57,434 nucleotides of DNA from an uncultured Candidatus Saccharibacteria bacterium (lineage in GTDB: Bacteria; Patescibacteriota; Minisyncoccia; Phycocordibacterales; UBA1006): contig CAZUIQ010000003.1 of the NCBI GenBank assembly GCA_964620085.1, positions 16,912 to 74,345 of the forward strand, written 5' to 3'. This document shows positions 4,602 to 45,657 of the stretch, piece by piece. The number at the start of each line of letters is the position of its first letter. Position 1 is the first letter of the stretch. A program made the translations under genes and the position numbers. Under the pieces are notes generated by a model. That model ran no database searches, was not told the DNA's origin, and worked only from the letters and a program-made list of their open reading frames with translations.

Positions 4602-5219
4602 TCACGGCTTCACGGTCATGTGAATGATCGATCCCAGAGGAAGTTTTAGTGAGTATGCAGAAATTTCTTTTGCATGGGTTCCTTTGGTGAGGTTTTCAAA
4701 TTCAAAACATGCACCAGATATTTCTTCATACATATCATCGAATACCGATTCTTCCATAACTAAGGAAACATGTTTTGGAATAAGGGGGCCTACAAATGTA
4801 AGATGAGCTGAATGAAACAATGATGCATCAATGATAATAATATCAGTTAAGAACCTATCCCATCTTATAAAATCATCACTGGTGAAAATATCATACTCAG
4901 CCTCCCTGTTATTTAAAATTGCATCATGACTAATACTTGAGACTGTAAATAGAGTAATCTTATATCTACGTTCGAAAATCCTTTTAAAGAGTTCGTGCAC
5001 AGACTTCTCGTGCGCATGATATTCCTCAATTCCTATGGGAGATTCAGGAATAAAGTTGAGCTCTAGTTTAAAAGCAGGATTATCCTTCTTGGTCTCAAGA
5101 ATTTGTTCAATATCAGAGGCGGTGCCTTCTGGTGTAATAAAAGGAAGAGATATCTTCCAGTGGTTTTTGTGGTGCTTCGTAAGGTATTTGCTGGTATTGT
5201 TTTTTATTGTTATTGACAT
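4602..5219 (-). CDS. hypothetical protein (205 aa)
   Basis: Intact ORF. No family recognised. Confidence 0.5.
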   Translation of the reverse strand: MSITIKNNTSKYLTKHHKNHWKISLPFITPEGTASDIEQILETKKDNPAFKLELNFIPESPIGIEEYHAHEKSVHELFKRIFERRYKITLFTVSSISHDAILNNREAEYDIFTSDDFIRWDRFLTDIIIIDASLFHSAHLTFVGPLIPKHVSLVMEESVFDDMYEEISGACFEFENLTKGTHAKEISAYSLKLPLGSIIHMTVKP

Positions 5220-5295
5220 GAGTTCACGTTTTCTGAAATACTACGCCTTTTTTAGGAAAAGTCAAAAAAACACTAATCTTATTTACAAGAAGTAA

Positions 5296-17234: not shown

Positions 17235-17477
17235 TTACAAAGTGTTTTTCGAATTTTCTTCAAGCGCCATTTGATGCTGTACTGTCGCAATATAGAGCTC
17301 TTCTACTTTCAATCTTGCCCAAGGCGTTTTGCGCAAGAATATGAGGCTCGATTTAATACTTGGATCAGTTGTAAAACACTTAATCTTGATATCTTGACCC
17401 AATGTTTCCCATCCGTAATACGCCACAAGTTCGTTGAGGATGTTTTCGAGGGTTTTGTTTTGGAGTGGGTTGGGCAT
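17235..17477 (-). CDS. DUF2132 (VF530-like) small protein
   Basis: LVAYYGWETLGQDIKIKCFTTDPSIKSSLIFLRKTPWARLKVEELY. Confidence 0.8.
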   Translation of the reverse strand: MPNPLQNKTLENILNELVAYYGWETLGQDIKIKCFTTDPSIKSSLIFLRKTPWARLKVEELYIATVQHQMALEENSKNTL

Positions 17478-17479
17478 GG

Positions 17480-18046
17480 TTATTCTATATTGTCTTGGTG
17501 ATTAAGTTGATATTCCCAAATAAGTTTAATAAGTCTTTTTAATTCCAGGTCAAATTTCACAAGAGACAATTCTGGTTGAAGGTGAATTCTTTTACGTAAA
17601 TTAAACTTTGCATGAACCACAAACTCATGCCAGTTTTTCAATTCGAGTCTGAATATTTCCAGTTGAGACTGGACTATAGGAATATTTTCAAAGTAGATAT
17701 CCATTTTCGATTTTATCTTAATATTAAGTGCTGGTATCTCATCGTTTACCTTGTTAGAGAAATCAGGAAGTTCTAACTTTATATCATTTTCAAAAAAATC
17801 TCTATCAGATCGATCTGTTTTAATATAGGTATGAGCAATACGATCAATAATTAGTAAAACATAATGACTCTTCTCTTGTAAAAGAATGAGATCATCAATA
17901 ATGTCTTTCTTAATCTCAGTATCACGATCTATGTCTTTCTGTTTAGAATATTCAGTTGTTGCAAGATATGCAGCAAGAATTACCCCTGCAATAGCAGCGA
18001 AAGTAGCATTATTTGTTATTTGGTATAGATAATTACAATCAAGCAT
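17480..18046 (-). CDS. hypothetical protein with one N-terminal TM helix (188 aa)
   Basis: TFAAIAGVILAAYLATT followed by a helical, charged body. It is divergent from the RT locus. The sequence is AT-rich. Confidence 0.5.
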   Translation of the reverse strand: MLDCNYLYQITNNATFAAIAGVILAAYLATTEYSKQKDIDRDTEIKKDIIDDLILLQEKSHYVLLIIDRIAHTYIKTDRSDRDFFENDIKLELPDFSNKVNDEIPALNIKIKSKMDIYFENIPIVQSQLEIFRLELKNWHEFVVHAKFNLRKRIHLQPELSLVKFDLELKRLIKLIWEYQLNHQDNIE

Positions 18047-18266
18047 ATATTCATATAATTACACCAACCCACCTCGAAACGCATCCATCAGATAGGTTTT
18101 TTTAAGTCTTCCGCAGTAGTCGAAACGGATGCCTAATTAAGGATCAGCTGGATAGCCATATTGTTATTATAGCATTATTCTTAAAAGAGAAATAAATACA
18201 TACTATATTCGTGCACCCTCCCAGCAGCTATCCACAGGTAATCCTCAGAAAATAAGATCCTGGTAT

Positions 18267-18294
18267 TTGTTAAAAAATCAAAACTGTTTATAAT
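18267..18294 (+). promoter_or_regulatory. sigma70-type promoter in the RT upstream region
   Basis: TTGTTA at 18267..18272, a 16-nt spacer, then TATAAT at 18289..18294. Confidence 0.5.
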
Positions 18295-18299
18295 GTCTG

Positions 18300-18757
18300 T
18301 GTGGAATTTATTTTCTGCAGATGAGTTATCATCTTGAACTTTGACATGAACGAATAGACCAGCACCAAGCGATTTTTGGGTACGAAAGTATCAGGTAGTA
18401 ATACCTTTATCGGGGCATGTGGGGGTGATGATTATCACCTAAAGGATTTGTAATTCGCTCAATGAATACAATACCTAATCCGCATTGATATACAGTATTA
18501 ATTTATACTATCCCGGAGCACCAATCGATAGACATGTTAAAGTCATTAAAAAGTCGTTTGGTGCATCCGAGTATGTTTAAAAAGCGTATTAAGGAGATCA
18601 TTTCTCAACCTGAAAAGGTTCAGGCATGGTTGCATATTGTTTTTACAATTGCAAAGGTTGTTCATAAATTCTTTTAATTTATGAACTCTATTCATAATGT
18701 ATTATTGTTGCTCTTTGCCACGAAATTATTTTGGTTGCAAAGAATAACAATAAAAAC
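18300..18757 (+). ncRNA. candidate RT-associated structured non-coding leader RNA (unclassified)
   Basis: No ORF of 60 aa or more. Multiple hairpins include GGTAC-GAAA-GTATC, AGGTA-GTAA-TACCT, GGTGAT-gatt-ATCACC, CCTGAA-aagg-TTCAGG and GTTCATAAA-N9-TTTATGAAC. A 14-bp imperfect stem spans 18704..18749, and 18341..18350 pairs at long range with 18533..18542. Confidence 0.3.
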
Positions 18758-19696
18758 ATGTTCAAGTACAACACAGCCCCCGCGGTATTTACAGAGAAGA
18801 GTTTTCTTTTCTTAATCAGGACAAAGAAAAAAGAATTCCGAGAAATGTTGAAAAACAAAGGTAATTTTTATTCGAAAGAAAAAGTTTTTAAAAAGAACGG
18901 CATAGATTTTCGCGAGATTTACAGACCGAAAGCTGATTTGAAGTTGCTCTTGAAAAAAGTAAACAAAAAGTATCTTTCCGGATTTAATTTCCCATCGTTT
19001 GTGCACTGTGGACCTGCAAAAAAATCTATCGTGACGGCTGCAAAGGGCCATGAAAAGTTTAATCATCATATATCACTGGACATAATAGCGTTTTTTGATC
19101 GAGTCACCAAAGATACGGTTGAAAAGACGCTCCGCGAACGAGGTGTGAAAAAAAACGTCATAAAAACACTGACTGATTTAGTTGTGGAAGACAACCGGCT
19201 CCCGCAAGGATTTCCTACGAGTCCATTATTGTCTGCAATGGTTATCAGCTGTGCACTCAAAAGTTTTTGCAATATGTTTCCAAGGGAAAATATATTGTTA
19301 TCTGTGTACGCAGATGATTTGCTTTTATCTTCCGAAGATTTGAAGCTCCTAAAGAGTGCGGAGGAGTACATAAAAGAGAAATTATCTCTCCTAGGATTGG
19401 TGCTTAATGATAGTAAAAAGATTGCAGGGAAAAAAGGAAGTAGGTTTACATGGCTTGGTCTTCAGATACATCCCTGGATTAATCTACCGAGAAAAAATCT
19501 ACAAGATTTGCAGAAGAAGGCTCACTTATATCGTACGAAGAAGATTATCCCAAACGATTTCAAACGTGATAAAAACAAGAAAACAAAAACAAAGACTCAG
19601 TGGAAGGAATCAATGAGAGGTAAAATTACTTTCGCAAGATACATAAATGGAAACAATAAGTTGATCAAAAAAACGGAGCGCTTATTAGGAAATTAA
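18758..19696 (+). CDS. compact stand-alone reverse transcriptase, retron-like (about 312 aa)
   Basis: RT motifs HISLDIIAFFDRV (A), RLPQGFPTSPLLSAMV (B'), VYADDLLLS (C), LGLVLNDSKK (D) and FTWLGLQI (E). A retron-like SIVTAAKGH element precedes motif A. The track start is a TTG at 18731 and the first ATG is at 18758. Confidence 0.85.
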   Translation: MFKYNTAPAVFTEKSFLFLIRTKKKEFREMLKNKGNFYSKEKVFKKNGIDFREIYRPKADLKLLLKKVNKKYLSGFNFPSFVHCGPAKKSIVTAAKGHEKFNHHISLDIIAFFDRVTKDTVEKTLRERGVKKNVIKTLTDLVVEDNRLPQGFPTSPLLSAMVISCALKSFCNMFPRENILLSVYADDLLLSSEDLKLLKSAEEYIKEKLSLLGLVLNDSKKIAGKKGSRFTWLGLQIHPWINLPRKNLQDLQKKAHLYRTKKIIPNDFKRDKNKKTKTKTQWKESMRGKITFARYINGNNKLIKKTERLLGN

Positions 19697-19757
19697 TCAT
19701 TCGGCGGGTTTTATACTCTTCTTTACCTTAACATCATATAATTATACATAGCTGCCT

Positions 19758-20507
19758 TTATTTCTGAAACACAAACAAATGTTCGTGCATTATTAACAAA
19801 AAGTTCGCTTCTTTTGATTTATTTACCCAAAACCCAGTCGCCTTGCAATTAAACTGTCGTTTAATAATATCTTCTTTTAATTGAAACCCTGCATCAAGAA
19901 ATTTTTGCATAACTTTATATGCAAGAGGTTGATACATTTTATTTCTTCGAGTATCACCAATCAAAACTGCACAGAATTTTCCAGGTTTTAAAACTCGATA
20001 CAGTTCCCCTGCAACCTTCCCCATTTCGTCTGCAAATTTATCAATATTATGAATCCCTGAAATATCCTCAGGGATTTTTCCGTCACTGTATTTAATAATA
20101 TCTGCGTACGGTGGATGAGTAAGAATGAAATCAATACTGTCAGGTTCGGCTTTTTTCAAGTCTCGAGCATCTCGTTTTAAAACTTTCTGCCATGACGTAT
20201 TATCAACTTTAAATTTCAAGGACTCTTTCGTTCGTTCAAGAGCTATGTCGTTTACATCAGAACAGATAATGTTTCTATTTAAAATCTTTGCTTCAATGGC
20301 AGTTGTCCCTCCGCCAATCATTGGATCAAGTAAAATATCACCTTCTTTTGAATATCTCAAAATCAAGTTACGAACAACTTCTGGTGCCCAATTCCCTCGC
20401 CAGTCAGATTTATGGGTCGCCCAATTCCCCCTACGAGGAAAAGCCCAGACAGTGGTGCACTCTAGGTCGAATTCTTCGGGATGAAGTTTTAGTTCGTTTT
20501 TACTCAT
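19758..20507 (-). CDS. DNA methyltransferase (N4/N6 family), last gene of the RM operon
   Basis: AdoMet motif LLDPMIGGGTTAIEA lies upstream of catalytic motif ILTHPPYADII. An N-terminal TVWAFPRRGNWATH segment is typical of the N4/N6 MTase domain. Confidence 0.85.
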   Translation of the reverse strand: MSKNELKLHPEEFDLECTTVWAFPRRGNWATHKSDWRGNWAPEVVRNLILRYSKEGDILLDPMIGGGTTAIEAKILNRNIICSDVNDIALERTKESLKFKVDNTSWQKVLKRDARDLKKAEPDSIDFILTHPPYADIIKYSDGKIPEDISGIHNIDKFADEMGKVAGELYRVLKPGKFCAVLIGDTRRNKMYQPLAYKVMQKFLDAGFQLKEDIIKRQFNCKATGFWVNKSKEANFLLIMHEHLFVFQK

Positions 20508-20514
20508 TTTTAAA

Positions 20515-21372
20515 TTACCAAGTTAAAGTATCTAGTACATTATTTTCAAGCATGGATAGATTGAAAACGTAGTCATTATGGTTGTATGTTTCCTCGAGTG
20601 GTCTTTTTGTTGTATGCCAACCTAATCCATCGGTTACCCAAATAAAATCAATATTTTGTTCTTTTAGTTCATTATGTAAACTTCGAAACTCCCCGCAGAC
20701 AGCTTTTAGTTTTGAACCTCCTCCATTATAAAAGTTTGCTTCAAATAATTTAATCCTGTTGCTTTTGGGGTTGTATACAGCAAAATCAAAACTGCGACTA
20801 GATTTATCCACGCGAATATTTATACCCCAACGGTCATGAATTTTCTTTGCATTGGCCTGGGATAAATATTCTAAGCCGTGTTTGTTTGAAAAATCTGATA
20901 TGAAAACCTCTGTTATTTTCTCCATTAATTTACCTCCGCGATTCTTCCTTCCATTACTGTCGAGCCCTACTTCTACTCCAATGACATAGTCTACAAGGTT
21001 TTTAATTCCATCCTCTTTGAACAATTTAATTAACCCAGACTTTTCAATAAATTCGAACCATGCTTCTGGCGATTTTTCATTTGCGGTGAAATTATAAAAT
21101 TCTGATTCTTTGGTTTCTATATCAAAAACCTCGAGATTATTTTCTCGTATTGCAAGTAGTACAGGCAATGCTTTGATAATATCAGAATTAGTTGAATAGA
21201 GTCTTTTAAACTCATCCTTTAGGTTTTGTTTACCTAATAAGAAGTTAAGCTTGTTTAGTGTAATTTCTAATTCTGAACTATTAGAGAAAACTTTTTTCCA
21301 GTTCACAAAATAGTCCCAGGTCTTGATGGAGTTTTTTAGGGTCGATATTAAGTTATTAAAATCTTTTGTCAT
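20515..21372 (-). CDS. dpnB: type II restriction endonuclease, DpnII/MboI family (GATC)
   Basis: From memory, it resembles R.DpnII along its whole length: LVDYVIGVEVGLDSNGRKNRGG, FEANFYNGGGSKLKA and WVTDGLGW. Confidence 0.9.
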   Translation of the reverse strand: MTKDFNNLISTLKNSIKTWDYFVNWKKVFSNSSELEITLNKLNFLLGKQNLKDEFKRLYSTNSDIIKALPVLLAIRENNLEVFDIETKESEFYNFTANEKSPEAWFEFIEKSGLIKLFKEDGIKNLVDYVIGVEVGLDSNGRKNRGGKLMEKITEVFISDFSNKHGLEYLSQANAKKIHDRWGINIRVDKSSRSFDFAVYNPKSNRIKLFEANFYNGGGSKLKAVCGEFRSLHNELKEQNIDFIWVTDGLGWHTTKRPLEETYNHNDYVFNLSMLENNVLDTLTW

Positions 21373-22979
21373 AATTTTTTCTTAACATTCTGCCAGGTTT
21401 GATTAGTTTTGGTAAATACCTTGTTTTCGTTTAGGTCAGGATTTGCTAAAATCTGCTTCTTATAATAATCATTAAATAGTGCGTAGGTTCTGTTGAATTC
21501 GGTAGTATTTTTTGAATCTAAATGAAATAGTGCCGCTATTAAATGTAGATCCATATGTCTTAATTTAGATTTTTTGCTTTTTGATTTCTCTTTTTTAATT
21601 GCACCCTCTACAAATAGTCCAATACTGCAAAGCTTCCAAATATCTCCCAGTCTTGATCTAATCTTGTTTTCTATTAACACAAATTTGCCTTTCGGACTCG
21701 TCATATCAAATAGAAACTGCCTGTCGTTTTTAGCCGAAGAAGGTTCTTCAAGAAATGCTGCGTACACCCATTGAAATAGCCTGGTTGATGTTATTGTATC
21801 CTTACCATCGCTATGACCTTTCTTTCTTTTATATTTTATTTGCCCTTTACTTATTTTGTTAATATAGTTTTCTAAGAAAATATTGATTTCCTCATTTGAT
21901 ACCAAGTCTTCCGAACTGACTGCGTTTTGAGTGTTTGAGGTCTCACAAATTTTTTTGGAAAGTTTTGTATCTGCCTCAATTATTTTACAAATTATTGAAC
22001 CCTTTTTAATTTGTGACTTTGTTACAATTCCTTTATTGTAAGCCTCAAAGAGTCCAAATAAGGTTTGTGCCCCGTTAACAATTTGTGGATTTGTTATAGT
22101 AACCATTGTTGCATTTGGGGTCAGCGGACTTATCTTGGTACATGTTATGGTTATGCCGTTATGAAATATCCAAAAGTTATTTGGATTATGACGCAAAGTT
22201 GCTACTATTTTTTCAGAGAAAGCCTTCTTATTTAAATGACCTCGTATGTTTGAACTTATAATTTTTGTGCCATATTTCTGAATGAACTGCTTGAAAAGAG
22301 TCTCTATTGATATTTTTGCAATAATCTCTTTAGATCCAGACTGGTTTTTTGCAAGTAGATCAGATTCGATTGCAAGGGTAATATTACCAGTCACTGTTTC
22401 TTGATTAAATTTTTCAAGGAATAGTGTGTTTATGTCTTTAAAAATCACCTCTATCCCCATTTCTTCTTCTATGCTCCTAATTAATTTTTTTATCTTGGCA
22501 TTTCCATGACTATCATTCATCAATTCGATTTTTGTGAACGGGTGTTTTTTTCTTACAATAAAAAGTCGAACCTTGCGACGTGTCTGTTTTTTTAGCTTTT
22601 TTATATTTTTTTTAATAGCTTCGTCTCCTATAAAATCAGTGTTGCCTCGTTTTAAATATTTTTCTAAAGAATTTTTTATTTTATCGATATCTTTGTCTGA
22701 AATTCCGCCGGTGCCAAATTTAAATTCAAAAATATCAACTGACGTTTTATTTCCAAAGTAAAAGGCATCAATGCCCCCGTCGCACGCAGAGTCGGTGATT
22801 ATATTTGATAACTCTGTTAAGGAGAAATTTTTATTATAAAACAGTATTAAAAAGGTAATAATAAATTGATATGACTCTAAACTAGAACCTGGTCCATATG
22901 TATCTAAAGATTTTTTAAAAAGTATACTGGGTAAACTCCCCAATTCATTTTTATGTAATTCAAAGAGGTCTGTGTACAT
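21369..22979 (-). CDS. AIPR-family abortive-infection protein (536 aa)
   Basis: N-terminal ACDGGIDAFYF and central IVNGAQTL motifs are typical of AIPR. Its stop overlaps the endonuclease start by 4 nt (ATGA). Confidence 0.65.
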   Translation of the reverse strand: MYTDLFELHKNELGSLPSILFKKSLDTYGPGSSLESYQFIITFLILFYNKNFSLTELSNIITDSACDGGIDAFYFGNKTSVDIFEFKFGTGGISDKDIDKIKNSLEKYLKRGNTDFIGDEAIKKNIKKLKKQTRRKVRLFIVRKKHPFTKIELMNDSHGNAKIKKLIRSIEEEMGIEVIFKDINTLFLEKFNQETVTGNITLAIESDLLAKNQSGSKEIIAKISIETLFKQFIQKYGTKIISSNIRGHLNKKAFSEKIVATLRHNPNNFWIFHNGITITCTKISPLTPNATMVTITNPQIVNGAQTLFGLFEAYNKGIVTKSQIKKGSIICKIIEADTKLSKKICETSNTQNAVSSEDLVSNEEINIFLENYINKISKGQIKYKRKKGHSDGKDTITSTRLFQWVYAAFLEEPSSAKNDRQFLFDMTSPKGKFVLIENKIRSRLGDIWKLCSIGLFVEGAIKKEKSKSKKSKLRHMDLHLIAALFHLDSKNTTEFNRTYALFNDYYKKQILANPDLNENKVFTKTNQTWQNVKKKL

Positions 22980-22985
22980 AATTCT

Positions 22986-23957
22986 CTAGTAGTTGGTTAC
23001 CACAACTTCCAGCACCTTCCCTCGACCACTTCCCTTCGAATTAATCGCCCTCCCCGCCTCAACTTTATGAATCTGAATTTTCTTATCTTTAATCTCAGAA
23101 TAAATCTTGTTAATAAATGGCGCATCAGAGTTTGAAAGCATCACAAGGCAACCTCGTTTATGAAGCTCTACAAAAATATCTCGTAATTCAATTTGCTCCT
23201 TGTCCAAGAATGCGTCCTTGGTATATGAAGTAAATGAAGCGGTTTTACTCATTGGGTAATAAGGAGGATCAAAATAAATAAAATCTCCTTTCTTAGCTTT
23301 TTTCAAAACTTCTTTATAGTCCTGATGTTTTATCGTTACATTTTTTAACACCTTAGAAACTCGTTCTAAATTAACCTCATCACAAATAAGAGGGTTTTTA
23401 TTTTGTCCAAAAGGAACATTAAAACCACCAGACTTGTTTACTCGATACAAACCATTAAAACAAGTTCTATTAAGATAAATAAATCGTGATGCTATTTCTA
23501 CATCAGAAAGTTTTGAGATATCTTTTGACCGGATTTTTAGGAAATACTCTTTGTTTACTTTGTGTTTCTTAAGAGATTTAATAAGTGATTCAACATCATT
23601 TTTAATAACATTATATGTTGTCACTAATTCATTGTTCATATCAGACAAAACCGCATGTTTAGGCATGAGATCAAAGAAAACAGCACCGCCACCTACGAAT
23701 GGTTCAAAATAGGTATTCTTTGTAGGATCAAAAAGTTCTGGTGGAAACAAGTTTCTTAATCGAAACTGTGTCAAAAGCTGACGTTTACCCCCAACCCATT
23801 TTACAAAAGGTTTCGGTTTCTCGGAGATAATTTTTTCAGCGTCTTTAAACCAATTATTCTTACTCAAAACACGAGAAATAACCATTTGCGCATAAATGTT
23901 ATTTATGGCAAATTTCTGCTCAATTTCATGAACTTTAGAAATGTCTTGCTTATTCAT
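22986..23957 (-). CDS. dpnM: Dam-type N6-adenine DNA methyltransferase, DpnM-like (GATC)
   Basis: FVKWVGGKRQLL, FEPFVGGGAVFFDL, FIYFDPPYYP and the C-terminal SGRGKVLEVVVTNY. The N-terminus extends about 35 aa beyond DpnM, so an internal start is possible. Confidence 0.9.
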   Translation of the reverse strand: MNKQDISKVHEIEQKFAINNIYAQMVISRVLSKNNWFKDAEKIISEKPKPFVKWVGGKRQLLTQFRLRNLFPPELFDPTKNTYFEPFVGGGAVFFDLMPKHAVLSDMNNELVTTYNVIKNDVESLIKSLKKHKVNKEYFLKIRSKDISKLSDVEIASRFIYLNRTCFNGLYRVNKSGGFNVPFGQNKNPLICDEVNLERVSKVLKNVTIKHQDYKEVLKKAKKGDFIYFDPPYYPMSKTASFTSYTKDAFLDKEQIELRDIFVELHKRGCLVMLSNSDAPFINKIYSEIKDKKIQIHKVEAGRAINSKGSGRGKVLEVVVTNY

Positions 23958-25410: not shown

Positions 25411-26220
25411 TTAATCTTTTAATTTCGATCGTTTATTAGTAGTACCCTTAATTCGTTTCTTTGACTCCTTTACATGTTCAACATTGGGCAATTTTTCTGG
25501 CATGGTTCCCCCAAGTTCTGCAATGGTCGCACGTACCTTTTTACCAACCTCGAGGTGTGCAGTGCTCGCTGCTTGTTGCCCATGGATACCCTCACGTTTC
25601 AGTTTCGCCTCGGCTTGGGTGGCACGGAACAGGTTGGCTGCAAGCTCTTCACTTCCCATATGATCAAGGATACTTGCCTTGTCTGGTAGGTGTTTTCGAT
25701 CCTTGATATCCTTTTGGCGTAATCCGCCATAAAGTCCTATATATCCAGCATCCTGAAATCCTGCATAGTTGGTTACTCCGGCACTTTTTGCAGCACTAGC
25801 AAGGTTTTTATTATGTTCCTTCATTTCTTCACGGAGGAAGACTCGTTTGGTATCCTCGACGAGTTGGTCGCTAGTCTCTTGACGGCGTGTTTGGATGGCG
25901 AAATAGGTTTTTGCCTTACCTACGATTACTTTGCCAGAATCTGCGCTCTGTAGGGTCAGATAACAGGCGTAACGAGACATATTTACATCCTCAACTTCAC
26001 GCTCAGCACCAGATCCAATGATGACCATATCGTGCACATCCTCGAAATGGTCATCTGATGAAAAGTCACTGTTTTCACAGGCTCGTTTAGCTTTTTCAAT
26101 AACAGGAACGAAAAAACGGTATTCGGAATATCCCAATATTTTCCCTAGTTCTCGAGCACTCCAGTATTCTTGCCCGTACTCGTTCAGTTTCTTGATTTGT
26201 TCAAAAATATTCTCTGGCAT
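25411..26220 (-). CDS. dinD: DNA damage-inducible protein D
   Basis: From memory, it resembles E. coli DinD closely: QEYWSARELGKILGYSEYRFFVPVIEKAKRACENS, YFAIQTRRQE, ILDHMGSEELAANLFRATQAE and IAELGGTMPE. Confidence 0.9.
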   Translation of the reverse strand: MPENIFEQIKKLNEYGQEYWSARELGKILGYSEYRFFVPVIEKAKRACENSDFSSDDHFEDVHDMVIIGSGAEREVEDVNMSRYACYLTLQSADSGKVIVGKAKTYFAIQTRRQETSDQLVEDTKRVFLREEMKEHNKNLASAAKSAGVTNYAGFQDAGYIGLYGGLRQKDIKDRKHLPDKASILDHMGSEELAANLFRATQAEAKLKREGIHGQQAASTAHLEVGKKVRATIAELGGTMPEKLPNVEHVKESKKRIKGTTNKRSKLKD

Positions 26221-43878: not shown

Positions 43879-45657
43879 TTATCGAATCTCCCACCCGTTC
43901 CCTTTCAGTTCAGCATAAATTGCATCCATAATCGGGGTAATTTCTTCCTCGGTTAAAGTTCGGTCAAATAATTGAAATACCATACGAAACGCCACAGATG
44001 TTTTTCCATCTTTGGTAAAGGTATCAAATAACCGTGGAGGAATTACCAATAGATCTCCTCCGTGTTTTTTTAAGATGTCGGATACTTGATCAGGATTCGT
44101 TGATTCAGAAACCCACACCGCAACATCACGCGTCATATGTGGATACAATGACCATGGTTTAAAGAGCGTATTTTTTACCTCATTTTTTATTTCAGAAACT
44201 TGATTTTTGAAAACATAGTCTTCAAGTTTCATTTCTCGCACCCCTTGTTTATCCGCAATTCCTACCAATACTTTTTCACCATCTTTCGTAAACACACTTC
44301 CGATTTCAAAAATTTTCATATCGTCAACATTCACCAGATCCTTGTTCATACGATTCATTTCAAAAGACTCTTTCAATCCATCCACAAGATTTTTTCGCAG
44401 CGCAGATTTTCCAACCGGACCTCGCGCAACCTCATAGTCACCTTTTTTACAGAAGGTATAGGTAATAACTTCGTGATATCCTTGAGTAATTAAATCAGAC
44501 CTCACGGCGTTTACTTGAGAAAATTGTGAATCATTTAACACATGCTTAGTATCAAGTTCCGGTAATACTGCTTGAATATTTCCGTAACCATACACCTTTC
44601 CAATTTCTTCTGCCATGTCATGAGCTCCTGTAATATCAATACGTTCATACGGCACAGTCAGGGTAATTTCTTCACCCGAGACAGTATAGGTATATGAGAA
44701 CCGATTCAAAATAGCCGCCATTTCTGAAACCGAAAGATTGGTTCCCAGTAATCGATTAATAGTTGATACAGAAAAAGTAACCGTTCGCTGTTCTGGAACA
44801 TGCGGAAATTCATCAACGGTTTCGGTTGGTTGTCCGCCTGATAATTCGGTAATTAAATCGGTTACCAGATGCATCGCATCATCACATAAAAACGGCGTAA
44901 TTTCGTTTTCGAAACGCTTGGTCGAGTCATTATGGATTCCACATTGCTGTGCTGTTTTTCGCACTGAAACCGCATCGAAATTTGCAACTTCGATGATAAT
45001 ATTTTTTGTATTTTTATCTACCTCAGCATATTTACCACCCTTTACCCCCGCAATTGCAAGCGGTTGGTCTGCCTGGTCATTAGTAATAACGGCATTGGAT
45101 TCGTTTAGCGGAACAAGTTTTCCATCCAAGGTCAGCATTTCTTCCCCTTCATATGAATGACGCACTATAATTTTTCCATTGGCTAATTTATCCGCATCAA
45201 ATGCATGGATTGGTTGACCCAAGGTAAACATCACATAATTTGTCGCATCAACCACATTATTAATACTGCGCGCACCGATTGATTCAAGTCGTTCCTTTAA
45301 CCAGTCAGGAGATTCGGTAACCGATACGTGTAAAATTTTTCGTGCAAGGTAACGATTACAGATATCAGTTTTCAAAGTAACCGAAACATCGCTTTGTGCC
45401 AAGGTGTGTTGTTTAAATTCTAAAGGTTTCAAAGTAAGCCCTAGAATCCCTGCGACTTCACGTGCCATTCCATAATGACCGAGACAATCATGGTTTCTAT
45501 CAGGAAGAGTCTTGATATCCAATACCTTTCCACCTTCATTTATCTCATCGGTATTCTCAACCTCAAAAGCACTGAAAATAATTTTTTCAGCAAGTTCCGA
45601 AACCTTCGGTAATGGCTCTACGATATATTCTTGTAACCAGTCATAGTTAATTTTCAT
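43879..45657 (-). CDS. pheT: phenylalanine--tRNA ligase beta subunit (short form, no N-terminal tRNA-binding domain)
   Basis: MKINYDWLQEYI start. B3/4 and B5 regions are recognisable. The C-terminus (FRMVFQLFDRTLTEEE) is anticodon-binding-like. It lies in a pheS-X-pheT operon. Confidence 0.9.
   Translation of the reverse strand: MKINYDWLQEYIVEPLPKVSELAEKIIFSAFEVENTDEINEGGKVLDIKTLPDRNHDCLGHYGMAREVAGILGLTLKPLEFKQHTLAQSDVSVTLKTDICNRYLARKILHVSVTESPDWLKERLESIGARSINNVVDATNYVMFTLGQPIHAFDADKLANGKIIVRHSYEGEEMLTLDGKLVPLNESNAVITNDQADQPLAIAGVKGGKYAEVDKNTKNIIIEVANFDAVSVRKTAQQCGIHNDSTKRFENEITPFLCDDAMHLVTDLITELSGGQPTETVDEFPHVPEQRTVTFSVSTINRLLGTNLSVSEMAAILNRFSYTYTVSGEEITLTVPYERIDITGAHDMAEEIGKVYGYGNIQAVLPELDTKHVLNDSQFSQVNAVRSDLITQGYHEVITYTFCKKGDYEVARGPVGKSALRKNLVDGLKESFEMNRMNKDLVNVDDMKIFEIGSVFTKDGEKVLVGIADKQGVREMKLEDYVFKNQVSEIKNEVKNTLFKPWSLYPHMTRDVAVWVSESTNPDQVSDILKKHGGDLLVIPPRLFDTFTKDGKTSVAFRMVFQLFDRTLTEEEITPIMDAIYAELKGNGWEIR

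Follow-up and report, generated by a model that had tools for sequence, protein, structure and literature searches.

We report here that positions 18267-19696 of the window (the whole stretch of DNA analysed, 57,434 nucleotides (nt) of contig CAZUIQ010000003.1) probably form a self-contained retron-type module of about 1.4 kb. The module comprises a reverse transcriptase (RT) gene, a structured upstream RNA and a micro-open reading frame (micro-ORF) encoding a small protein (SP) of 34 amino acids (aa), which would work like a Type VI retron with the SP as its effector; we put the probability of this reading at roughly 0.6. Among known systems, the closest layout for the family to which the module belongs is that of a Type VI-like hybrid-RNA retron from candidate-phyla-radiation bacteria, apparently reduced to an RT and a micro-peptide and devoid of a helix-turn-helix (HTH) partner. 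The original prediction had described the RT as an effector-less orphan behind a long non-coding leader. That leader does carry a conserved structured RNA, but it also holds a 34-codon ORF (18573-18677) that is kept in 15/15 loci, and the statement that no co-oriented effector gene is present has to be withdrawn, given this conserved candidate effector between the non-coding RNA (ncRNA) and the RT. The micro-ORF had been overlooked because of a 60-aa ORF threshold; it is correct that no ORF of at least 60 aa lies between 18047 and the RT start (~700 nt).

Our comparison set consists of 15 non-identical family loci, window included, and their alignment revealed one upstream architecture common to all of them, with the parts in the order -10 box, P0, a1, two GNRA hairpins, msd-like hairpin, a1', a2, small ORF, stop hairpin, RT-start hairpin and RT. 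In the window, the parts are the following.

18267..18294, + strand: sigma-70-like promoter (TTGTTA, 16-nt spacer, TATAAT), with 10/12 matches in a promoter scan and a transcription start predicted at ~18301.

18319..18334, + strand: P0 hairpin, with 100% of alignment cells paired over 15 loci and an A-U to G-C double change in 6 of them.

18362..18377, + strand: a1, the 5' arm of a long-range inverted repeat, GCACCAAGCGATTTTT; a 16-nt repeat, 88% complementary to 18549-18564.

18379-18392 and 18393-18406, + strand: SL1 and SL2, msr-like 5-bp hairpins with GNRA tetraloops, with 96-100% of cells paired and 5 pairs showing double changes.

18411..18515, + strand: msd-like region, opened by a conserved CGGGGCATG and presumed to be the RT template; a variable hairpin domain with conserved flanks.

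18516..18528, + strand: a1' (GAGCACCAATCGA), which repeats a1 in direct orientation at the 3' edge of the msd-like region and was recognized as both a direct and an inverted repeat.

18549..18564, + strand: a2, the 3' arm of the inverted repeat, which ends 8 nt before the start codon of the small ORF.

18573..18677, + strand: SP micro-ORF, 34 aa, MFKKRIKEIISQPEKVQAWLHIVFTIAKVVHKFF, the candidate effector; intact, co-oriented and in the same position in 15/15 loci.

18660..18686, + strand: hairpin around the SP stop codon, GTTCATAAATT/AATTTATGAAC, a perfect 11-bp inverted repeat.

18702..18753, + strand: a2'/RT-start hairpin, a 24-nt inverted repeat whose 5' arm is a2-like (TTGTTGCTC).

18758..19696, + strand: retron-type RT, 312 aa, YADD intact, matched by Pfam RVT_1, the PADLOC retron models and the family profile.

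The idea that the region upstream of the RT might be conserved and covary among related loci was borne out. When the upstream regions were compared by BLASTN, we found a block of ~110 nt, at about -445 to -331 from the RT start, that retains 70-87% nucleotide identity among loci whose RTs are 43-55% identical in protein. A -10-like box stands at an equal distance upstream of the first hairpin in a 12-locus alignment, and the SL1 and SL2 loops are GAAA, GTAA, GCAA or GGAA in nearly all loci. Retrons have a priming (branching) G where a1 ends; in this family, most loci keep a G at the base of SL1. Over the 44 pairs of the locally aligned helices, 93.6% of the cells are paired and 25 pairs show double changes; partners slid out of position were 39-47% paired, and 0/500 shuffles were as high, a statistic that is inflated by the kinship of the loci. 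Among these helices are a1':a2 (13 pairs, 7 with double changes, 90.8% of cells paired) and a2':RT-start (15 pairs, 11 with double changes, 90.7% of cells paired). An equivalent of the hairpin around the SP stop codon appears in the single-sequence folds of 15/15 loci, with arm sequences that differ among them, and the 3' arm of the a2'/RT-start hairpin covers a purine-rich stretch just 5' of the RT start codon. Structure and covariation lie on both sides of the SP gene.

The long-range pairings were assessed by comparing cognate with non-cognate duplex energies, because MAFFT loses register in the variable region. The a1:a2 duplex had a mean energy of -18.1 kcal/mol between cognate arms versus -9.6 kcal/mol between non-cognate ones (permutation p < 1e-4), and in 11/14 loci the cognate partner was the best of all. 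Three further pairings also favoured their cognate arms (p < 1e-4 in each case), with means of -13.8 versus -10.2 kcal/mol for a1':a2, -15.6 versus -12.6 kcal/mol for a1':a2' and -11.3 versus -7.7 kcal/mol for a2':RT-start, while three control pairings gave p = 0.23-0.55. The a1' element can pair with a2 or with a2'. The window RNA folds with z = -5.0, and the a1:a2 duplex is present both in that fold and in the full-transcript fold (minimum free energy). Between its conserved blocks the msd-like domain measures 46-140 nt and differs among loci in sequence and in length; its single-sequence folds are long stem-loops, with z <= -2 in 7/14 loci. We presume that it is the template for reverse transcription.

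A covariance model of the 5' module found each family locus once, always upstream of the RT, with scores of 79-123 bits; in 62 other retron loci it gave no significant match. By this comparative evidence, a conserved and structured RNA precedes the RT directly, on the same strand, and has retron anatomy, with an msr-msd bounded by a1 and a2. Among the other retron loci, two identical weak matches to the model (14.8 bits, E = 0.7) were seen in L001, a Prevotella locus (5179-5254), and in L024, a locus with a type-XI-like RT (962-1037); both lie ~540-615 nt upstream of the RT, where an ncRNA is expected, and are probably due to chance. One match to the P0 hairpin pattern on a viral contig was discarded as a chance hit, being placed inside an opposite-strand ORF of 334 aa with no RT nearby and scoring just 16.6 bits on the covariance model. 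Rfam, searched with an E-value threshold at 16.5-20.5 kb and with gathering scores over the whole window, returned only a tRNA-Ile at 39.6 kb.

The SP is 34-42 aa long across the 15 loci, and the gap from its stop codon to the RT is 56-84 nt in all of them. Pairwise differences at codon positions 1, 2 and 3 are 0.47, 0.33 and 0.60, respectively (0.24, 0.19 and 0.44 in the close group), and because third positions vary most we read this substitution pattern as a coding signature. The peptides follow the pattern KK..F..P[ED]K[IV]K.WLE......I[IL][KR].IH[YF]F.K, in which the Trp is invariant. Public data include gene calls for two of the homologues (L106, 37 aa; L111, 41 aa), and in every locus the 400-1000 nt upstream of the RT are free of gene calls or contain very short ones only. 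AlphaFold2 modelled helices at residues 2-11 and 13-33 (predicted local distance difference test score, pLDDT, 85); the net charge of the peptides is +3 to +7, and their C-terminal helix has a mean Kyte-Doolittle value of 0.8-1.6 and a hydrophobic moment of 0.44-0.65. The SP is thus predicted, from the model and these indices, to be a cationic amphipathic two-helix peptide. We considered a start at the upstream in-frame ATG 18534, which lies inside the a1'-a2 loop, would add 13 codons (MLKSLKSRLVHPS...) and is shared by the window, L019 and L021, and rejected it, since it is lacking in most loci; the extension of the frame over 18534-18572 probably reflects conservation at the RNA level and not a true start.

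The RT ORF extends on the + strand from TTG 18731 or ATG 18758 to 19696 and encodes 312 aa from the ATG, which is the likely start because the N-terminal 29 residues are conserved in homologues. The TTG, in frame in some loci only, was set aside in favour of the ATG, which aligns with the N-termini of the homologues. In the public annotation (P0001, 283 aa) the gene begins further downstream, without these 29 residues; an exact-sequence look-up of P0001 found no match. All the RT motifs that had been quoted are present in the ORF (ISLDIIAFFDRV, RLPQGFPTSPLLSAMV, VYADDLLLS, LGLVLNDSKK, FTWLGLQI and SIVTAAKGH), and the enzyme is as compact as described, Pfam finding RVT_1 alone (5.5e-20) and no fused domain. 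The retron region X (NAxxH, between RT2 and RT3) is present with the consensus S-I-V-T-A-A-[RK]-G-H, in which the His is invariant, the Ala nearly so, and the Asn is replaced by Thr or Ser.

The retron-like character of the RT, as the original prediction had it, was confirmed, while a likeness to UG enzymes and the analogy with DRT2 were not. The best 25 of 53 PADLOC matches are all retron RT models, over the full length of the protein, led by RT_III-A (143 bits), RT_VI (121) and RT_II-A (119). In NCBIfam the top match is retron_St85_RT (122 bits, below its cut-off of 235); the group II intron RT model reaches 50 bits, and the Drt2 and Drt5 models, with cut-offs of 390 and 550, give 16.1 and 20 bits, respectively. 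When the family profile was compared with the PDB, the top matches were the Ec86, Kva2, Ec83 and Ec67 RTs; Ec86 scored 105 bits (E = 4e-29) and the group II intron RT 44 bits. Because of the PADLOC and NCBIfam rankings and of Ec86 as the best solved relative, we classify the enzyme by its sequence as a retron-type RT and not a UG/DRT one.

The suspicion that it falls outside the characterised classes also stood up. Typed RTs score 158-470 bits on the PADLOC model of their own type (158-242 for the RT_VI class, 316-469 for III-A), for which reason an enzyme whose best model gives 143 bits should not be counted as a member of any typed group. Out of 1.84 billion representative proteins, a profile search recovered only four full-length clusters at 50% identity (346-483 bits), below which the score drops to 163 bits and continues into other retron RTs; by these scores the family is a small, sharply isolated lineage. 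Its closest outgroups are a mix of VI, III-A, XIII and XI-like RTs. In a neighbour-joining (NJ) tree, which is crude and built without reference Type IV and V sequences, the family was monophyletic (88%), paired with one unclassified RT and outside every labelled type; the placement as a whole consists of the PADLOC scores and this tree. The NJ partner, P0044 (309 aa), is also the nearest outgroup in the profile search (163 bits) and has no PADLOC RT match at 1e-45; it may represent a second unclassified retron-like lineage. In all, we collected 40 RT homologues at 40-55% identity. A metagenome scan with the RT gave six close loci, a scan of genome contigs gave distant RTs alone (22-37% identity), and none of 72,556 plasmids was matched by tblastn at 1e-8.

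To look for other partners, we compared all ORFs within 3.5 kb of the RT by BLASTP (E below 1e-4) and found no protein gene common to the 15 neighbourhoods. Some family RTs have gyrA on one side and a tRNA-binding gene on the other, or are likewise enclosed by rpsB-tsf and prfA, and since housekeeping genes stand on both sides there, everything essential fits into ~1.7 kb. About half of the loci have defence or mobile-element neighbours: the restriction-modification genes with AIPR in the window and, elsewhere, GmrSD, a ResIII restriction gene, SocA/Prim-Pol, or a Rep protein together with a serine recombinase. The comparison of ORFs counts against an explanation that we find scarcely credible, in which the divergent transmembrane (TM) protein of 188 aa (17480-18046), named earlier as a possible partner, would be the effector of a Type IV-like or III-like tripartite retron, with or without the VF530 protein (17235-17477): both genes adjoin the RT, VF530 is a DNA-binding family and the TM protein has a weak PADLOC match to the 2TM effector model (E = 0.006, 14 bits), but neither has a counterpart beside the 14 other family RTs, several of which have housekeeping genes alone as neighbours, and we therefore do not regard them as partners.

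The system that the module most resembles in layout is the Type VI retron, whose RTs form a monophyletic lineage (clade 3) and which the original prediction had not considered. A partner of so small a size is found in none of the thirteen retron types listed by Mestre et al. (2020, PMC7736814). Type VI retrons, of which Retron-Vpa2, Retron-Sen3 and Retron-Eco12 are examples (PMC7736814; 10.1101/2025.10.22.683967; 10.64898/2026.04.27.721009), have been described as SP-HTH-RT (10.1101/2025.10.22.683967; 10.64898/2026.04.27.721009). In Retron-Vpa2, a hybrid RNA of ~470 nt combines the msr-msd with a translationally repressed, toxic SP (Zhang et al. 2025, 10.1101/2025.10.22.683967). Its multicopy single-stranded DNA (msDNA) accumulates on triggering only and is required for translation of the SP, and direct repeats, present in the msd and in the riboregulator, have been proposed as the switch by which the msDNA opens the SP start; toxicity needs a hydrophobic amphipathic C-terminal helix, and the HTH, a small partner, binds RT and RNA (10.1101/2025.10.22.683967). 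In about 78% of the Type VI entries there is an HTH gene, either 5' of the RT or overlapping with it, and the SPs form mutually dissimilar clusters, with 1.9% identity between those of Sen3 and Vpa2 (10.1101/2025.10.22.683967; 10.64898/2026.04.27.721009).

Our family shares with these retrons the succession of ncRNA, small helical protein and RT on a single strand, a structured RNA contiguous with the SP coding sequence (here ~460 nt predicted, against ~470 nt in Vpa2), direct repeats that connect the end of the msd with the region that would control the SP, and an SP with a hydrophobic amphipathic C-terminal helix placed between ncRNA and RT. It differs in that a Cro/C1 HTH gene is absent from 15/15 loci and that the SP, at 34-42 aa versus 55-99 aa, is about half the size and without detectable homology. 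The RT differs as well: it scores 121 bits on the RT_VI model versus 158-242 for true members, clusters elsewhere in the crude NJ tree and has WL[G/S] in place of VTG, and the RNA model of the 5' module finds nothing in RT_VI-class loci. Among the RT_VI-class loci that we sampled, three have SP-HTH-RT (L004, L007, L035) and four have SP-RT without HTH (L005, L025, L030, L032), so that loss of the HTH is not unprecedented. In L005, L025 and L032, an SP of 91-99 aa directly precedes the RT and no HTH gene is present. A conserved stretch ~500-900 nt upstream of the RTs of L005, L007, L025, L032 and L035 yields spurious ORFs with the motif '[FV]GLHG.Y'; it is presumably the own ncRNA of those loci, missed by our covariance model.

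Likenesses to other systems are more limited. Retron-Eco1 (Ec86, type II-A3) has the closest solved RT, and the family shares with it a compact enzyme of ~310-320 aa and, immediately 5' of the RT, the a1/a2 inverted repeats that enclose msr-like hairpins and a variable msd hairpin. In Ec86, the effector is a large protein combining an NDT with a DNA-binding domain, and the msDNA is made constitutively and acts as an antitoxin. Our family has, in contrast, a micro-peptide inside the RNA as its sole conserved partner, additional a1'/a2' repeats and no VTG. With Type IV (Retron-Eco6/Ec48, which has a 2TM effector) it would share membrane damage by a hydrophobic effector, which is presumed here, but its RT belongs to another clade. 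Type III-A retrons, whose RT model is the best in PADLOC, are associated with a PRTase-like protein and a winged-helix DNA-binding protein; our family is unlike them in that no PRTase is found among the neighbours in the window and no neighbour is conserved in the 15 loci. The toxins of type I toxin-antitoxin systems, such as Hok and TisB, are cationic, hydrophobic, helical peptides of 30-50 aa whose translation is restrained by mRNA structure. A small cationic helical peptide within a structured mRNA recalls them, by analogy only: here we see no gene for an antisense RNA, the peptide comes linked to an RT, and it is the retron RNA and its cDNA that would exert control.

If the module works in the manner of a Type VI retron, a single promoter would drive the structured hybrid RNA of ~460 nt and, behind it, the RT gene, and one transcript would carry the template, the SP and the RT. 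The RT would bind its own RNA, prime cDNA from the a1:a2 duplex and copy the msd-like region. The SP would be a growth-arresting effector kept untranslated, or nearly so, by the fold of the RNA, in which a2, 8 nt before the SP start, can pair with a1 or a1', and a2' can pair with a1' or close the RT-start hairpin. Upon phage infection, cDNA would accumulate. The segment copied first would include a1', which would make the 5' part of the cDNA a complement of a1 and of a1' alike; since a2 abuts the SP start, and since a2' competes as a partner of a1' or of the RT-start hairpin, such a cDNA would re-partition the helices and open translation of the SP and of the RT. The released SP would then arrest the cell, probably by damaging its membrane, and the infection would be aborted. 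With no protein antitoxin encoded, control would be purely RNA- and cDNA-based. A stronger claim, which we advance tentatively and at less than even odds, is that the family is an undescribed retron type, so far from Patescibacteria only, that it is the smallest complete retron (~1.4 kb), that the sole partner of its RT is a 34-42-aa peptide within the retron RNA, and that this toxin is gated solely by a cDNA-flipped a1/a1'/a2/a2' switch.

Several points weigh against the Type VI-like reading. What the comparison of loci establishes is the anatomy, its conservation, the covariation (with the inflated shuffle statistics mentioned above) and the coding signature of the SP; the RNA transcript, the cDNA, the toxicity and the phage phenotype are predicted. 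By its model scores the RT does not group with Type VI (RT_VI, 121 bits, is below RT_III-A, 143), and the VTG triplet of region Y in RT7 is absent: its replacement, seen earlier in the window, holds throughout the family, which has F-x-W-L-[G/S]-L instead, with a Gly that is not invariant. The SP finds no family match in Pfam or PADLOC, and a comparison of its profile with that of the Type-VI-like SPs that we collected shows no similarity (probability 0.1%). The predicted occlusion of the SP start is modest, with a paired probability of 0.74 versus 0.65 for the whole transcript, and a constitutively transcribed toxin gene without a protein antitoxin would need very tight RNA control, which the model assumes.

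This lack of an encoded antitoxin is also in keeping with the best of the alternatives, which we nonetheless consider unlikely, namely that the SP is a regulatory leader (an upstream ORF or arrest peptide) that controls the downstream hairpins and translation of the RT, the output of the system being the cDNA/RT complex or an unlinked host factor. The SP stop codon lies inside a conserved hairpin, 56-84 nt upstream of the covarying RT-start hairpin, and the peptide has a conserved Trp and aromatic residues, which are typical of arrest peptides such as TnaC. However, the 19-residue C-terminal helix stays cationic and amphipathic at 19-45% identity, which fits a folded, active peptide better, and in the Type VI precedent the SP is a toxin.

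That precedent can also be turned the other way, since the small HTH partner of Type VI binds RT and RNA, and the basic N-terminus of the SP (KK, R) could bind nucleic acid. The SP might accordingly be a non-toxic cofactor, that is, an RT- or RNA-binding subunit or an antitoxin-like or anchoring peptide, with toxicity coming from the RT/cDNA or a host target. We hold this to be a little less probable again than a leader function: the SP has no DNA- or RNA-binding fold or family match, and its hydrophobic amphipathic C-terminal helix is the very feature that the toxicity of the Vpa2 SP needs.

Quite improbable is a DRT2-like arrangement of RT and ncRNA with no protein effector of its own, in which the templated cDNA would be a new gene or a toxic DNA. 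A standalone RT gene with a long structured RNA upstream and no large partner gene does recall DRT2, of the UG/Abi class, but the RT is of another class, as the Drt2 and Drt5 scores and the best 25 PADLOC matches, all to retron models, indicate, and the RNA has the a1/a2 architecture of retrons together with a pre-existing conserved ORF. The candidate template is, moreover, the least conserved part of the module in sequence and in length, the opposite of what a protein-encoding template would show.

The surroundings of the module in the window agree with what had been noted of them. A convergent N6_N4 methylase gene ends at 19758, 61 nt 3' of the RT, and the locus lies in an AT-richer stretch (GC 0.31-0.36 at 17-24 kb, flanks ~0.38-0.44). 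The neighbouring restriction-modification (RM) genes form a DpnII-type cassette with an AIPR/AbiU-like gene: on the - strand, 19758-23957 encodes a DpnII endonuclease together with two methylases, one of the Dam class and the other a second N6_N4 enzyme. Between the Dam and endonuclease genes, the AIPR/AbiU-like gene (21369-22979) is inserted; from the 4-nt overlap of its stop with the start of the endonuclease gene, it looks co-translated with the RM genes. A full-length homologue of DinD (DNA-damage-inducible protein D; 25411-26220, - strand, 353 bits against a cut-off of 242) is found ~1.5 kb past this block, at the edge of the AT-rich stretch. On the other side, a 220-nt spacer (18047-18266) separates the TM gene from the retron promoter; it is outside the conserved module and contains short repeats, TCGAAACGCAT and TCGAAACGGAT spaced 46 nt and TGGATAGC/GCTATCCA inverted and ~80 nt apart, which could be a divergent promoter/operator or an insertion scar.

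In other family loci, a serine recombinase (Resolvase + Recombinase) is encoded within 1-3 kb of the RT (L019, 2410-4074; L102, 6961-9155; L111, 1-1141), adjoined in L102 and L111 by a REP_ORF2-G2P replication protein, which suggests that the module is sometimes carried by a small integrative element. As to the host, GatB of the window is 64-66% identical to sequences of Candidatus Nomurabacteria and Paceibacterota, and GyrA of L098 is 80-85% identical to those of Paceibacterota, Pacebacteria, Adlerbacteria and Parcubacteria; these identities place two divergent family members in Patescibacteria, and the host genome appears to be a Paceibacteria/Nomurabacteria-like member of that group. Many ORFs of the window are without a family, and its pheT is short (592 aa, 43879-45657). 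One homologue, P0009, is labelled 'Segetibacter sp.' and comes from a 2.5-kb contig of a metagenome-assembled genome, where a binning error is possible.

If the proposed reading is true, retron immunity could do without a protein antitoxin and be reduced to a single enzyme, a single RNA and a micro-peptide, and the module would offer a clean system for studying how a cDNA remodels an mRNA to unleash a toxin, a step that is open in the work on Type VI. It would also mean that classifications based on neighbouring genes miss effectors that fall under ORF length cut-offs, and that other orphan RTs may hide micro-ORFs of their own. The 312-aa RT with its compact cognate RNA would be a candidate for retron-based editing tools. 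For the bacteria of the candidate phyla radiation, whose tiny genomes have few known defence systems, it would add a further one.

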